Source: a virus (Duplodnaviria; Caudoviricetes). From it: a DNA stretch of 64,000 nt. The notes beneath the pieces are model-generated. The model had not been told where the DNA came from and did not search any database. It saw nothing but the letters and a program-made list of their open reading frames with translations. Every line of letters begins with the position of its first letter. The stretch's first letter is position 1. The stretch lies in IMG/VR virus record IMGVR_UViG_3300033067_001757, positions 123,244 through 187,243 of that record. One strand, written 5' to 3'. Below, in pieces: positions 25,979 through 34,627 of this stretch. A program made the translations under genes and the position numbers.

Positions 25979-26021
25979 AAATAAAAGTTATGACATTTGA
26001 TATTGAAGGATTTAAAATAAA

Positions 26022-26053
26022 TTTGGAGAACTTATTTAAGTTCTATAATTTTG
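26022..26053 (+). promoter_or_regulatory. Bacteroidota primary-sigma promoter (TTTG-N20-TAATTTTG)
   Basis: Consensus -33 and -7 elements with a 20-nt spacer, upstream of 26074. Confidence 0.6.
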
Positions 26054-26073
26054 TTGTATAATAAATAAAGGTT

Positions 26074-29650: not shown

Positions 29651-29887
29651 ATGTCACCAATATTTTTTTATTTTCTCGGATTTATAATTTCTTATGTCTC
29701 AGGTAAGCTATTAAGAAATTACACTAAAGAAAACGAATGGGAAGATGTACGTATGACGCTTTTATTAGCAATATTCAGTTGGGTAGGATTTATATGTATT
29801 TTACTAGCATCGATCGCGATACTGTTACAACCTGTATTAAAAAAGTTCCGCATTAAATATTCAGATAAACCACCAAAATGGTTATGA
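29651..29887 (+). CDS. small membrane protein
   Basis: Two hydrophobic helices, C-terminal KPPKWL. Confidence 0.65.
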   Translation: MSPIFFYFLGFIISYVSGKLLRNYTKENEWEDVRMTLLLAIFSWVGFICILLASIAILLQPVLKKFRIKYSDKPPKWL

Positions 29888-30297
29888 CCAACGCCCACCT
29901 ATTTCTCGATGATGTTCGTATGCCAATTGATGTAGAGAAGTACATTAATCCGGTAGAATTAAGACCACTTTACCGGTTAAAGCCGTGGATTATAGTAAGA
30001 AACTATCGGGAATTTACTGAATATATAAAAAAGAATGGTCTACCAGGTACTATTTCATTTGACCACGACCTGGGCGAAGATGAGGCTGAAAGTATGGTTT
30101 CTGAAGGTATATCCAAGAGAAAGGCCCGGGAACACAAGAAAACAGTTAAATCCGGATACGATTGTGCTAAGTGGCTTGTAGATTATGTTATTGAGAACGA
30201 ATTAATACTACCAGACATCTTATGTCATAGTATGAATCCGGTAGGTAAGGAAAATATCCTGATGTTATTTGAAAATTATAAACGATTTATGATATGA
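29878..30297 (+). CDS. cyclic-phosphate-processing receiver (cREC) domain protein
   Basis: LFLDDVR, ISFDHDLG, GYDCAKWL, HSMNPVG. Confidence 0.8.
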   Translation: MVMTNAHLFLDDVRMPIDVEKYINPVELRPLYRLKPWIIVRNYREFTEYIKKNGLPGTISFDHDLGEDEAESMVSEGISKRKAREHKKTVKSGYDCAKWLVDYVIENELILPDILCHSMNPVGKENILMLFENYKRFMI

Positions 30298-30326
30298 CTG
30301 TCCGTTTTTAAGATCCAATACCCAGG

Positions 30327-30357
30327 AGCCCGGTGGAACATTCCATCCGGGTTTTTT
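30327..30357 (+). terminator. intrinsic terminator between convergent genes
   Basis: CCCGG-TGGAA / TTCCA-T-CCGGG stem followed by T6. Confidence 0.75.
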
Positions 30358-30358
30358 A

Positions 30359-30742
30359 CTACCACGCCCTGCAGGACCAGTATCTTGCTTTAGTACGCGG
30401 TCCCGGATCTTTACAGTTATGTCTGGCCCTGAATGAAGCTCTTCGTTCCGGGTTGTTCTTTTTAATATTCATTCCCTTCTGACCAAAGTTGACTTTTACA
30501 ACTTTACCAGTAGCAGGGTTCTTTACATATACCTTAAACTTTTTTACATCACCCTGCATACGTTTACCTAATTGTACAGTATGTCCCTGGTATTCAGCTT
30601 CCAACAATGACGGATCAGTAATTTCTTTTAATTGTTGCTTATACTCCTTTATAAACTCGGTGAACTCTTGTATGTCATAAATATTTTCAAGATCATATTC
30701 ATCGATACCGTCATCCTTTTTGTTCGAACATTGGCTACTCAT
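30359..30742 (-). CDS. conserved basic phage protein (KKFKVYVK..VNFG..SFRARH.C..KARYWSC family)
   Basis: Motif set recalled from T4-like and cyanophage genomes; start at MSSQC follows ATATTTAT. Confidence 0.75.
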   Translation of the reverse strand: MSSQCSNKKDDGIDEYDLENIYDIQEFTEFIKEYKQQLKEITDPSLLEAEYQGHTVQLGKRMQGDVKKFKVYVKNPATGKVVKVNFGQKGMNIKKNNPERRASFRARHNCKDPGPRTKARYWSCRAW

Positions 30743-31342
30743 ATTAATATTTTGTATATAAATATGGCTGGTGTCCGTTACGGACTTTAGTTGTATATAC
30801 AAATATCTATTAGACTGGTATGATCTGCAGGGTTTTCTTCTACACTAATTTTGCCGGACAGAATTTTTTCTGAAAACAGAATTTCCATTCAGAGAACTTC
30901 TGTACACGAATTTACCCCATTTTAAGCCCCATACGGGCCTGTTTTTGTTTATTGATATGAATGTACCGGAGCTTTGCTTTGCGGTCAATGGTGCCGGGAT
31001 AACGCTTAAATGGACACAATGTCCATATTATTGTCCAGGTACGGTGATGGAAATATCTGTCATTAAGTCGTTACTTTAGGGTTAATGAATGAATAAGCCG
31101 TCATTATCTAACTTATTGATATATACGTATATATTGAAGGGTTACCGTGGAACGGGCGGTGAAGTGTAAACGAACCTGCCCACTCCCCTACCTGGTTAAA
31201 GTTTTGTTAAGGTACAATAATTAACACTTTTTTTAGAAATAAAATAGTAAAGAAAAATTTTAACATTTCATTTGAAAATAATTTATTATAGAACTTTTGA
31301 GATACCTAGTAAGATTTCATTAACAAATTTTTAACAGTTAAC

Positions 31343-31375
31343 TTTGTTCGGCTATCAAATAAAGTTCTACATTGC
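31343..31375 (+). promoter_or_regulatory. host-type early promoter (TTTG-N21-TACATTGC)
   Basis: -33 TTTG and near-consensus -7 element preceded by AAGTTC; heads the plus-strand early region. Confidence 0.55.
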
Positions 31376-31396
31376 ACTATCAAATTTTATTAACCG

Positions 31397-31426
31397 TTCT
31401 GCATCTCACAACAATAAGATGCAGGA
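31397..31426 (+). promoter_or_regulatory. 5' UTR hairpin with CACAACAAUA loop
   Basis: 10-bp stem TTCTGCATCT/AGATGCAGGA; loop matches the three downstream hairpins. Confidence 0.75.
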
Positions 31427-31441
31427 CACAAAACAAAAGTT

Positions 31442-32023
31442 ATGAAACAGGAAATTAAAGTTAGGTTGGTAGGTAAAAATGTAAAGCAGCATACCATAAC
31501 TAACGAAGGTTCAGTAAGTGTAAACAGGCAGGTTACTGATATTGCAGTTCTGCTTTGTTTAGATGCAACCCAATTTGAAAAGCTGCCAAAAGTTGAGGTT
31601 GTTTACAATGGTGTAACACATTCTTTCAACATGGTGAAAGATGCCGCAAAATTATCTTTCACTTTGTTGCTCGAAATTGGTAAGGTATTGTTTTCTAATG
31701 TTACCACTTTTGAAGGTCGTACGGAACAAAGCAGTAACCCTATTGCATTAGCAATACTTGTACCTTTTAAGTACAAGGAAAAAACCGTGTCATATGAAGC
31801 ATACACTAAAGCCATTAGTGTAAAGTTTTCCGGTCTCAAAACATTGGTTAAACACGAGCAAAACAAAGCAGCTTTTTTAGATACTGCTTTTAATGCTACT
31901 GTTTCTATTGCCAAAATTGCGAATAGCGAATATTCAAAAATCGCTAAAGGTGCAAAGGAAATTGCCGCTAAAGGTTATGCTGCTGCCATTGCTGCAAACC
32001 GTTTGCCCGTTGCTACTGCTTAA
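31442..32023 (+). CDS. orphan basic protein, candidate RNA-binding regulator
   Basis: 193 aa, Lys/Ala-rich C-terminus, first gene after the early promoter, flanked by conserved-loop hairpins; the function is inference. Confidence 0.75.
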   Translation: MKQEIKVRLVGKNVKQHTITNEGSVSVNRQVTDIAVLLCLDATQFEKLPKVEVVYNGVTHSFNMVKDAAKLSFTLLLEIGKVLFSNVTTFEGRTEQSSNPIALAILVPFKYKEKTVSYEAYTKAISVKFSGLKTLVKHEQNKAAFLDTAFNATVSIAKIANSEYSKIAKGAKEIAAKGYAAAIAANRLPVATA

Positions 32024-32031
32024 TTTTTGAT

Positions 32032-32206
32032 AGGGTTACAATACAACAATTTTGCAGCCCTTAATTAGTTATTAGTTAGCGTTTATTGTGAGTATGGTTT
32101 GAACTTGTGCAATACAACAATTTTGCAGCAAGTTGTTAAACGCTCTTTTACATAGTTTGTTTATAGTCTAATTTAAGATGCCGCAATACAACAATTTTGC
32201 AATGGC
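32032..32206 (+). repeat. three-copy hairpin array, core CAATACAACAATTTTGCA
   Basis: Exact 18-mers at 32039, 32110 and 32184, each closed by a different outer stem. Confidence 0.9.
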
Positions 32207-32224
32207 TTTATACTGTTTACATTG

Positions 32225-33225
32225 TACATATCTTTTACAAAAATTAAAGGTAAAGTACACTAAAAAATGTTTATAGTAAACTCGAAAGTAAACGATAACA
32301 AACAGGTATGTACTAAATTTGTGCAGCTATCTTTTTTGAATAGCGGGAGCAATACATTAAAACAATTATGTACCCGTGAAAAAAATTTAAACTACTGCGT
32401 AAACTAAACTTCCGTTCCTTCATGTTTCTACATGGTGTATCATATAACGGATTGATGTTTACAAAGTGATAAGGTTTAAATCGTGTGTATCCCAGTACGC
32501 ACATTCATAAAACATTAGCTTAATCAATAACAGCACAAACGTACATAAGGCCATCGTGATACTGTTGATCAGGTAAGAGGTATGTCTATACCCAGCCAGG
32601 GATACGTGTGTACATTCGTGTGCCCATACTCCCACTTGTGCTACCTGGAACGGTCATAAAGCATCTACCTTAAATGGTTGGTTTTGTAGTTTGATGCTTA
32701 CACGTTTACATGAAAACTACACCAAAGCGGGTACGCATACGCTGAGGATACCGGATGAGTCCGGATAATATATGCCCATGAACGAATTGTTATACTTAGC
32801 ATTCGCATGGATCAAAACTATAAGTAAGTACATTCACTACCGGAACCATGTACAGTACACCAGGTTAACCGGTTCAACGTCCGCGGCATCATGTGCTTCG
32901 GCGCTTTTGTTATATCCCAACATAAATGACAACCATCGTTAAGCAGTATAATTCACAGGCAATTGCGTAAGCCCTGTACTTAAAATCGTAAGTCTTAGCA
33001 CATACAGTCATACTCGGGATCAATGGGCAACGACGTAGCTATCCCCCTCACGGGTTTGGTTAGGAGCTTCGTATGGCTCCCCCATTGCGGCAGGTAAGGT
33101 AAACATGTGTAAACCGGTAACCAACCCGTTACATGCATAAGCCCTTACCAAATCAACCGGTTGCGTAATACCTGTCCCTTCATAGACAGTTAGATAGACT
33201 CGCAGTCTGTCCCGGTTGCTAACTA
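32225..33225 (+). ncRNA. candidate large structured non-coding RNA (about 1 kb, boundaries approximate)
   Basis: No credible ORF; many nested and long-range helices with G-U pairs, UUCG loops and an H-type pseudoknot. Confidence 0.6.
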
Positions 33226-33237
33226 AAAATTAAGGTT

Positions 33238-33360
33238 ATGCGACATCTAAAACTGTACAGGCAAATCAGGTTATGGGAACTGAAGATAACTAAAATGAGT
33301 TCTCTGCATAAGGTAATGTGGAAAGCTGAATGGTTTAAGCACAGGCAAGCGATACAGTAA
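33238..33360 (+). CDS. 40-aa basic peptide (not in ORF track)
   Basis: TAAGGTT-ATG start; MRHLKLYRQIRLWELKITKMSSLHKVMWKAEWFKHRQAIQ. Confidence 0.55.
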   Translation: MRHLKLYRQIRLWELKITKMSSLHKVMWKAEWFKHRQAIQ

Positions 33361-33445
33361 GTTATCTTCCTTTCAGACGTACATACATATCAAAACAACA
33401 TTCACGGGCTTAAATCGCCTTAAAATCGCTAAATCAATAAAGGTC

Positions 33446-33568
33446 ATGTACATTCTCATAGTTCCGGTACTGGCAGCCATTAAGATTATACTTGTTATCC
33501 TGCAGAATCCAAAGGTAGATTTGGAATCAGGTAATTATGATGTTCTGCCAAGTAATATACCGGTGTAA
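33446..33568 (+). CDS. 40-aa membrane peptide (not in ORF track)
   Basis: AATAAAGGTC-ATG start; MYILIVPVLAAIKIILVILQNPK... Confidence 0.6.
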   Translation: MYILIVPVLAAIKIILVILQNPKVDLESGNYDVLPSNIPV

Positions 33569-33588
33569 TCAAAAAACAAATAAAGGTC

Positions 33589-33594
33589 ATGTAA
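33589..33594 (+). promoter_or_regulatory. start-stop (ATG-TAA) minigene
   Basis: Perfect AATAAAGGTC start motif, then ATG TAA overlapping the terminator stem. Confidence 0.6.
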
Positions 33595-33626
33595 GGAATG
33601 TTGGCTTAGGTTGGCATTCCTTTTTT
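33593..33626 (+). terminator. intrinsic terminator
   Basis: AAGGAATGTTGGC-TTAG-GTTGGCATTCCTT followed by a T tract. Confidence 0.75.
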
Positions 33627-33679
33627 ACTTCACATTCAATCACTTCAATAAAACGCCCGTATCCGGGTAAAGAAAGGTC

Positions 33680-33943
33680 ATGGAAAGAGCAATTGTAATC
33701 CCGATGCCAACAGTACTTGGCAAGATAGACTTAAACGCAATCAACCAGCGTGAGCAACAGGCTAAGAAGGCCAAACGTGTGTTCATTAATGAATCTCGTG
33801 AGAAGGCTGAGGAATTTAATGAAACCTTGGACCGAAAGAAGAAACAGGAAAACCTTCACAAAGACCTGCAAAGAGCTTTCTCACGCAGACCTGGTGCCAC
33901 TGTTACAGATGATCATGGCCATCTGGTGATCAAATTAAGTTAA
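33680..33943 (+). CDS. hypothetical protein
   Basis: 87 aa, VLGKIDL motif, AAAGGTC-ATG start. Confidence 0.7.
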   Translation: MERAIVIPMPTVLGKIDLNAINQREQQAKKAKRVFINESREKAEEFNETLDRKKKQENLHKDLQRAFSRRPGATVTDDHGHLVIKLS

Positions 33944-34064
33944 ATGCCCTACAGGGCACTTTTCCACTCGGTCCCGGTACTACTCGTAACTGATATAGGC
34001 CGGGGCTATTCTATTAAACGTCCGTTACGGACAATTAAAACGCCCTTATAGGGCAATTAAGATC

Positions 34065-34475
34065 ATGGAAACAGGTACAGTATTAAACCAGCAAGAGTTA
34101 TTCCTACTCGTTAAACAGGAAGCTGAGAACTTAAAAGTACATGCTACACAGGAAGAGCTGTCTAATTTGAGTTTTGATAAATTGGGTCCTTTAAACGCTG
34201 ATGCATGTGTATACGGATTGATGACTGGTTGTTGTTACAGTACAAGAGCTACTGAACTTATAAACTTATGCTGCGAAAGAGTTATAAGTGATGATTCTGG
34301 TGTAAGCAGCAGCAGAGTATTGAATAGATCACCAAAGACATCAATCAGAACGTCATACTGGTCACCAATAGAAGTTTACATTGCTCAGGAAGGACAGTTG
34401 ATTAGTAACAACAAATCCCTCATATCCTTTCTTAAGTCCGAAACAGATACTCTAACCTTTAACGAAGCTATATGA
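34065..34475 (+). CDS. hypothetical protein
   Basis: 136 aa, CVYG.MTG.C motif. Confidence 0.7.
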   Translation: METGTVLNQQELFLLVKQEAENLKVHATQEELSNLSFDKLGPLNADACVYGLMTGCCYSTRATELINLCCERVISDDSGVSSSRVLNRSPKTSIRTSYWSPIEVYIAQEGQLISNNKSLISFLKSETDTLTFNEAI

Positions 34476-34627
34476 ACCACATCACACTCCTTCAGGCACA
34501 AAACAGGATCAACTACTTAAACGGTATAATCTCCATTCTTGGTACCCGGTTGGCTCATAAATACGTATTGGAACTTGACAACCTGGTTGCATACATCGAA
34601 ACACTTAACTGGGAGCTTGGCTATTGA
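34472..34627 (+). CDS. small hypothetical protein (51 aa, not in ORF track)
   Basis: ATGA overlap with the previous gene. Confidence 0.5.
   Translation: MNHITLLQAQNRINYLNGIISILGTRLAHKYVLELDNLVAYIETLNWELGY

Follow-up and report, generated by a model that had tools for sequence, protein, structure and literature searches.

Six hairpins displaying one A-rich ten-nucleotide loop surround an orphan basic-protein gene in a Caudoviricetes phage

The window analysed here is a 64,000-nucleotide (nt) stretch, bases 123244-187243 of a 187,243-base-pair (bp) IMG/VR virus record (IMGVR_UViG_3300033067_001757; CheckV completeness 100%), and our subject is a locus within it at which an orphan gene, open reading frame 193 (ORF193), is accompanied by six short hairpins carrying variants of a single loop sequence. 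All six hairpins lie on the + strand and together span 31396-32376, the first (H1) in the 5' untranslated region (UTR) of ORF193 and the remaining five (H2-H6) within 350 nt past its stop codon. A sequence-only reading of the window had described four of these hairpins, all of which are where it placed them, and had missed two more, H5 and H6, which we found by scanning for the loop closed by flanking pairs and which use the same loop register as H1-H4. The components of the locus, in window coordinates, are as follows.

31339-31375, + strand: candidate promoter elements, a -7-like box TAACTTTG (31339-31346) and AAGTTC-TACATTGC (31362-31375)
31396-31427, + strand: H1, an 11-bp stem with one G-U pair and the loop CACAACAAUA at 31407-31416, ending 14 nt before the AUG of ORF193
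31442-32023, + strand: ORF193, an orphan of 193 amino acids (aa) rich in A, K and V
32032-32061, + strand: H2, AGGGUU-a-CAA / UUG-c-AGCCCU with the loop UACAACAAUU at 32042-32051, starting 9 nt past the stop codon
32102-32134, + strand: H3, AACUUG-UGCAA / UUGCA-g-CAAGUU with the loop UACAACAAUU at 32113-32122
32141-32152, + strand: boxA-like word CGCTCTTTTACA, between H3 and H4
32180-32206, + strand: H4, GCC-GCAA / UUGC-aau-GGC with the loop UACAACAAUU at 32187-32196, the weakest member
32229-32252, + strand: H5, UAUCUUU / AAAGGUA with one G-U pair and the loop UACAAAAAUU at 32236-32245
32344-32376, + strand: H6, CGGG-agcaa-UACAU / AUGUA-CCCG with the loop UAAAACAAUU at 32358-32367
32377-33445, + strand: ORF-free stretch that directly continues the hairpin array, with a G+C content of 42-47% (genome 36.7%)
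33593-33622, + strand: first terminator-like hairpin, 13 bp followed by a U-tract, downstream of the unit

The six loops are each 10 nt long and share the consensus YAMAAMAAUW, in which A2, A4, A5, A7, A8 and U9 are invariant in all six and variation is confined to positions 1 (Y), 3 (M), 6 (M) and 10 (W). The UTR hairpin had been described as the inner stem TTCTGCATCT/AGATGCAGGA at 31397-31426 closing the loop CACAACAATA, which is correct as far as it goes; the stem extends to 11 bp, and H1 folds with a minimum free energy of -15.5 kcal/mol (z -5.6, with 0 of 200 shuffles as good), abutting the A-rich initiation region and leaving that region open in the predicted fold. H2, H3 and H4 are built on exact copies of CAATACAACAATTTTGCA, whose three occurrences at 32039, 32110 and 32184 (spacing 71 and 74 nt) agree with the previous description and are the only ones in the whole 187-kb genome, while their outer stems, AGGGTT/AGCCCT, AACTTG/CAAGTT and GCC/GGC, differ from one another exactly as had been pointed out. 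Since the 18-20-nt core of these three repeats is identical and their 30-nt flanks agree at just 7-16 of 30 positions, the core has been kept by selection or gene conversion, and not by recent duplication. H5, which reads tatcttt TACAAAAATT aaaggta in DNA, is lengthened to 32223-32259 by an outer UGUAC/GUACA helix, and the inner part of H6 (32353-32372; tacat TAAAACAATT atgta) is nested within an outer CGGG/CCCG helix.

The association between this loop and a closing stem is specific to the locus. Among the 38 genome matches to YAMAAMAATW, all six at the locus are closed by 3-11 bp, whereas only 2 of the 32 elsewhere reach at least 3 bp, which is the chance rate. A second test, which is independent of the post-hoc loop consensus, looked for 10-mers that differ from TACAACAATT at no more than two positions and have 5 bp or more closing them, and returned eight sites genome-wide against 3.6 in block shuffles; four of the eight fall within 1 kb on one strand and the remaining four are scattered. 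The stems themselves vary in a compensated manner. Each of the five proximal stem pairs changes on both sides among the six hairpins, and 93.3% of the cells are paired, compared with 61% when partners are shuffled and 27-60% when partners are slid, and this degree of covariation was matched by 0 of 500 shuffles. A covariance model built from all six hairpins scores its training members at 26-31 bits and its next best match at 18.7 bits, leaving no further member in the 187-kb genome. When the model was built from the H2-H4 repeats only, its best non-training match was H6 (32351-32374) at 20.6 bits, with the next at 13.7; in the same genome scan this model, which is dominated by the stem sequence of the repeats, recovered neither H1 nor H5. 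The hairpin family is thus confined to one transcription unit.

The folding evidence points to the + strand. Folded as this strand, 32024-32400 forms each of the five downstream hairpins at -76.1 kcal/mol, compared with -65.4 kcal/mol (z +0.2) for the - strand, and the G-U wobbles, one each in H1, H2 and H5, are valid on the + strand alone, as each would become an A-C mismatch on the opposite strand. A partition function computed for 31380-33640, the putative transcript, gives five of the stems pair probabilities of 0.72-0.99 (H1 0.99, H2 0.89, H3 0.90, H5 0.84, H6 0.72) and leaves their loops unpaired with probabilities of 0.86-0.98 (0.96 for H1). Conservation of a loop while its stems covary is the usual signature of a recognition site displayed by structure, and the earlier suggestion that these loops on differing, G-U-containing stems form such a set is borne out within this genome. 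We regard the hairpins as very likely real and selected, and as likely to act as + strand RNA. What selection has maintained across all six is the display of one A-rich loop, YAMAAMAAUW, while the stems beneath it are interchangeable.

The gene that the hairpins surround is well supported as a gene. ORF193 has a coding score of 0.352 in frame against -0.36 and -0.51 out of frame and ranks 8th of 283 ORFs by codon bias, a position that falls among the structural genes; this high in-frame score and rank imply that ORF193 is a real gene whose product is probably made in quantity. The predicted protein is basic, as had been noted, with an isoelectric point of 9.6, a net charge of about +10, 22 Lys and 4 Arg. 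The same reading recognised no family for it, and profile searches concur: ORF193 has no match in Pfam (even at E up to 10), PHROG, PADLOC or the sequences of the PDB, no homologue among 5.8 billion clustered or 1.84 billion representative proteins, and no protein match in viral contigs. Two matches to representative proteins (E 3e-11 and 2e-4) were rejected, as they consist of short stretches of 21% or 52% identity multiplied by tandem Ig-like/Calx-beta repeats and do not reflect homology. The AlphaFold2 single-sequence model has a predicted local distance difference test (pLDDT) score of 42 and is unusable, and the leads by protein atlas similarity were all below 0.9 (viral hypotheticals 0.89; RegA 0.81, which is chance level) and were likewise set aside; the Translat_reg domain of T4 RegA (PF01818) is found neither in ORF193 nor anywhere in the phage genome.

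Upstream of ORF193 lies a gap of 639 nt that contains partial promoter matches only. The claim that ORF193 is the first gene after a host-type promoter is therefore sustained in part: the -7 box TAACTTTG is present, but it has no -33 TTTG, no canonical -33/-7 pair was found at 31339-31375, and nothing in 30000-34500 exceeds 12 bits on the phage promoter matrix, whose training sites score 26-50 bits. As a separate observation, the canonical promoters of the phage read [A]GTTCTCTAA...TTTGG-N20-(AAGTTCTA)TAnnTTTG and so have more than the host consensus in common; their AGTTCT/AGAACT half-sites flank the -33 element and abut the -7 box, an arrangement that resembles an operator for a regulator of phage or host origin. 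Nearly all of these promoters are on the - strand of the first 124 kb, with two in the + strand early block of the window, and examples lie at window 26010-26063 (+) and 22649 (-) and at genome 8550, 43596, 77457 and 83057 (-).

Between H3 and H4, 6 nt after the former and 27 nt before the latter, is the word CGCTCTTTTACA, and the pattern GCTCTTTnACA is unique to this position (32141-32152) in the 187-kb genome. The word resembles the boxA of lambda nut sites and rrn leaders, a likeness that we take as a lead only. Beyond the array, G+C content, which is 30% across the hairpin repeats, rises from about 32400. No coding signal was found in 32024-33445, and reassigning any single stop codon opens no frame in 32200-33460. 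The + strand of 32290-33250 is significantly structured (z -3.3, against z -0.6 for the - strand), so that the ORF-free stretch is a candidate new large structured RNA or, alternatively, a candidate long 3' region of the ORF193 transcript. Rfam 15 gave no match at gathering score in the window, and over 30800-34200 at E up to 10 it gave only chance-level eukaryotic or unrelated matches. We attribute to chance a 23-nt inverted repeat on either side of the unit (30907/33406), whose arms are 74% complementary. Around the end of the unit a AAAGGTCATG start motif is repeated at 33435-33454, 33578-33597, 33669-33688 and 34059-34074, and one copy forms an ATG-TAA minigene running into the terminator-like hairpin at 33593-33622.

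The wider setting of the locus is consistent with an accessory region of a phage infecting a Bacteroidota-type host. Across the whole genome a Shine-Dalgarno-like word precedes just 7% of ORF starts and the regions before starts are A-rich; TAnnTTTG boxes are enriched in non-coding DNA, which holds 27% of the boxes and makes up 9.6% of the genome, and the arrangement TTTG-N20-TAnnTTTG occurs at 13-22 genome places. A-rich starts free of Shine-Dalgarno words, combined with TTTG/TAnnTTTG promoters, are established hallmarks of such a host (see also PMC6847099), and to judge by these signals the phage would belong to one. It encodes a T4-type prohead protease and a baseplate wedge protein, and four relatives whose baseplate protein is 62-67% identical, compared over window 22900-46000, keep the order of the structural module up to about 23.8 kb. 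Beyond that point none of the + strand early genes is common to these relatives, which places the hairpin locus in a hypervariable early or accessory block. The ORF193 gene and the DNA of the locus are also absent from five larger records of the nearest relatives, one of them complete.

Other searches for relatives gave the same answer. The exact 18-mer repeat has no match in viral contigs and the locus none by blastn in the phages collection; a paired 12-mer pattern returned 53 loci in metagenome contigs, all of which were unrelated tandem repeats and were discarded. Among 185,579 species genomes the 17-mer core gave 98 single, taxonomically scattered matches with no arrays, and no CRISPR repeat in those genomes matches the hairpin core. 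Homologous loci were thus sought and none was found in the viral, metagenome or genome collections, which leaves the covariation evidence internal to one genome. To the left of the locus are a protein with a cREC_REC (cyclic-phosphate processing receiver) domain at 29878-30297 (+; E 1e-20) and, at 30359-30802 (-), a 147-aa protein of phrog_7595 with more than 590 relatives in IMG/VR; 80 loci of the latter family were compared and none has a neighbourhood resembling the hairpin region. For the downstream 136-aa gene, the one relative locus compared has no similarity to that region. The window contains no tRNA or tmRNA.

We propose, with a probability of roughly 0.4 for the statement as a whole, that one trans-acting factor with sequence specificity, most likely a protein, binds all of these hairpins on a single transcript, with ORF193 as the preferred candidate ligand. 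This transcript would start at a weak promoter near 31340-31375, cover ORF193 and the hairpins, and continue into the structured non-coding RNA of about 1 kb. The loop variants, in which C is exchanged for A at positions 3 and 6, together with the lack of any repeated sequence in the transcript that could pair with the loops, speak for a protein rather than a base-pairing RNA, and on balance we lean toward a protein as the ligand. The simplest candidate would be the basic, apparently abundant product of ORF193 itself, although we hold that particular assignment to be tentative and rather unlikely. Bound at H1, 14 nt before the AUG, this product would limit its own translation, and, bound cooperatively at H2-H6, it would either seed a ribonucleoprotein on the RNA further downstream or be loaded onto the transcribing polymerase as in N/nut; the position of H1 and the boxA-like word make antitermination of the N/nut kind a live sub-variant. 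The fullest version is a self-contained phage ribonucleoprotein module, in which an abundant orphan basic protein reads YAMAAMAAUW, throttles its own translation through one copy, and uses the five-copy array and the boxA-like element either to coat and assemble the ~1-kb RNA or to carry polymerase through into the next early genes. We judge this version unlikely.

Several observations weigh against this proposal. All of the evidence, covariation included, comes from a single genome. H4 is barely populated in the full-transcript ensemble, with a pair probability of 0.08, and H2, H3 and H4 folded singly are not better than shuffles (z -1.9, -0.8 and -0.6, respectively). Binding of RNA by ORF193 is backed by no supporting domain, homologue or usable model, and its high codon bias is unlike that of a low-copy regulator such as lambda N. 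The boundaries of the transcript are inferred. Finally, H5 and H6 grade into structured RNA, so that the array may be part of this RNA instead of going with a protein.

That last point leads to the alternative that survives best, in which the hairpins are 5' domain modules of the downstream structured RNA and their A-rich loops make tertiary or intermolecular RNA-RNA contacts, like those of ornate multimeric phage RNAs. On this view ORF193 would simply precede the RNA on a shared transcript, and H1 would serve to stabilise the 5' end or to provide one more docking site. The sequence-only reading had not connected the array with the adjoining ORF-free RNA, and once the two are considered together, the hairpins may serve this RNA rather than a protein: H5 and H6 adjoin the G+C-richer ORF-free region and are nested in predicted helices, the excess of structure is on the + strand, and no promoter or terminator separates the array from the region. 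There is precedent in GOLLD, ROOL and OLE, which are reported to form RNA-only homo-oligomers (PMC12286853). Against this reading, no repeated Watson-Crick partner for the loops is present in the transcript; the one loop-complementary site, of 7-9 nt at 32785, is mostly paired. In addition, H1 stands 600 nt upstream, beyond the coding region, no Rfam family was recovered over the region, and the downstream RNA has no relatives that could confirm it as a conserved RNA. We consider this explanation distinctly unlikely as it stands.

An alternative that keeps a protein or ribosomal partner supposes that the loops mimic phage start sites and so titrate or recruit 30S, S1 or another host RNA-binding protein, serving as a decoy, sponge or standby site. 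The mimicry would lie in YACAACAAU followed by U or A in place of G. ACAACA-AUG (ACAACAAUG in the genes) is the first start of four ORFs, at window 61097 and 55484 and at genome 22519 (-) and 110364 (-), where about 0.06 would be expected from the composition of start regions, and in three of the four a Y stands ahead, reproducing the first nine bases of the loop, YACAACAAU, before the G; the fourth is the prohead protease, with AACAACAAUG. The A-rich start regions without Shine-Dalgarno sequences would suit such a role, as would reports that initiation in Bacteroidia is favoured by adenines ahead of the start, especially A-3 and A-6 (PMC6847099; PMC13000457), and the invariant positions A-x-AA-x-AA-U have a period of three. 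Yet that period rests on just two substitutions, and a closed 10-nt loop makes an unconvincing imitation of a ribosome-binding region of 30 nt. Among host proteins, the RbpB motif GUAGGAUA, the sole motif reported for a Bacteroides RNA-binding protein, does not match, and the phage genome encodes no Hfq or RegA. Bacteroides are reported to lack Hfq and CsrA (PMC13370968), whereas in our Hfq search the Bacteroides thetaiotaomicron control matched, one of six controls that did so, five of the six over the cut-off. A host factor of this kind is, in our view, an improbable partner.

Ordinary signals of transcription or processing were considered as tandem promoters for the downstream RNA, as terminators or pause hairpins, and as RNase cleavage sites that part the ORF193 mRNA from the non-coding RNA. 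The repeat core does contain CAATTTTG, which differs by one base from the TAnnTTTG -7 box, and all three repeats have a TTTG or TTTA 16-17 nt ahead of it, and the start of H2, 9 nt past the stop codon, fits the position of a terminator. The repeats, however, read TTTG/TTTA-N16-17-CAATTTTG, which has the wrong spacing and lacks the TA of the phage arrangement TTTG-N20-TAnnTTTG, and the promoter matrix is silent across the region, as described above. No U-tract follows any of the hairpins and the terminator scan is empty until 33593. More generally, promoters, terminators and RNase III sites need no conserved 10-nt terminal loop on covarying stems, and we find these signals a quite improbable account of the locus.

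The repeats could instead act as DNA, with 18-20-bp direct repeats about seven helical turns apart serving as iterons or operators of an origin, a partition site or a repressor (possibly ORF193), or, in an alternative form, as single-stranded DNA hairpins used in priming. Exact direct repeats at 71- and 74-bp spacing in an AT-rich (30% G+C) non-coding stretch, adjoining a gene for a basic protein rich in A and K, speak for such an account. Binding to double-stranded DNA, however, leaves unexplained the six differing flanking inverted repeats with their compensatory changes and one-strand wobbles, no switch in GC skew occurs at the site, and H1, H5 and H6 have the loop alone, and not the repeat, in common, all of which makes this account very improbable. 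Scarcely plausible, last, is an anti-defence RNA decoy in which the array mimics a host RNA (a type III antitoxin or CRISPR repeat, as an RNA anti-CRISPR) and sequesters a defence protein: a phage-encoded tandem structured repeat beside a small basic protein in a hypervariable block missing from relatives would be in keeping with it, but the 17-mer core occurs in species genomes as scattered singles and never as an array, neither PADLOC nor Pfam assigns ORF193 to any family, the ToxN-like ones included, and the 18-20 nt conserved per ~72-nt unit is unlike antitoxin repeats.

Little has been charted of post-transcriptional control in Bacteroidota and their phages, a group reported to lack Hfq and CsrA and to ignore Shine-Dalgarno sequences, and a 10-nt loop that is displayed on any stem beside a 193-aa candidate partner would constitute a directly testable RNA-recognition system, with a possible use as a new orthogonal hairpin tag. 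If the self-contained ribonucleoprotein module were true, it would be the first protein-RNA recognition code, or the first N-like antitermination, for a phage of Shine-Dalgarno-less Bacteroidota. Even with a host factor as the partner, or with loops that make RNA-RNA contacts, the array would amount to a new RNA motif, and in any case it offers a handle on the adjoining 1-kb ORF-free structured RNA.

Comparison with known systems places these hairpins near several of them. In the operators of T4 gp43 (DNA polymerase) and of the MS2/PP7 coat protein-replicase, a protein reads the loop of a short hairpin at or before a start codon and represses translation; each of these proteins comes from a known family and has a single operator site, which overlaps the initiation region. 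H1, which precedes the ORF193 AUG, is like them, and the phage shares a T4-type prohead protease, but here five extra copies follow the gene, the loop has 10 nt and the protein is an orphan. The likeness to lambda N/nut lies in a first gene of an early unit with a hairpin in its own 5' UTR, as nutL stands before N, and in A-rich-loop hairpins with the boxA-like CGCTCTTTTACA in the array ahead of a structured RNA and a terminator. The lambda boxB, however, is a stem of ~5 bp with a 5-nt GNRA-like loop ~8 nt after boxA and occurs as one hairpin per operon, whereas here there are six hairpins, all with loops of 10 nt, and the boxA-boxB arrangement of lambda is not reproduced, as the boxA-like word trails H3 and stands 27 nt before H4. 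ORF193 is also twice the size of lambda N, draws its charge from Lys with only 4 Arg in 193 aa, and is highly codon-biased; no N-family protein with an N-terminal Arg-rich motif was recognised in it by Pfam, even at E up to 10.

CsrB/RsmZ and CrcZ are similar in repeating one short motif in the loops of tandem hairpins on a non-coding RNA, and differ in that here one copy also lies in the UTR of the adjoining gene. The CA motif of Hfq/Crc is AAnAAnAA, of which the loops, with A-x-AA-x-AA, carry seven of eight positions; the phage encodes no Hfq. The GGA loop motif of CsrA/CsrB is absent, as no loop contains a G, and ORF193 has no Pfam match. Type III toxin-antitoxin systems (ToxIN, CptIN, TenpIN) likewise combine a tandem structured RNA repeat with a gene for a basic protein of ~170-190 aa, but their repeats precede the toxin gene and are nearly exact over the whole 36-45-nt unit, whereas here the repeats follow the gene and the core only is conserved; PADLOC and Pfam gave no ToxN/AbiQ-like match for ORF193. 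The parallels with lambda N/boxB and CsrA/CsrB drawn by the sequence-only reading are accordingly functional analogies only, since the defining features of those systems that we tested are lacking here. A conserved loop on variable stems that is read by a protein is a known principle, exemplified by MS2, T4 gp43, lambda N and CsrB, and by any defining feature tested the hairpin system belongs to none of those four families.

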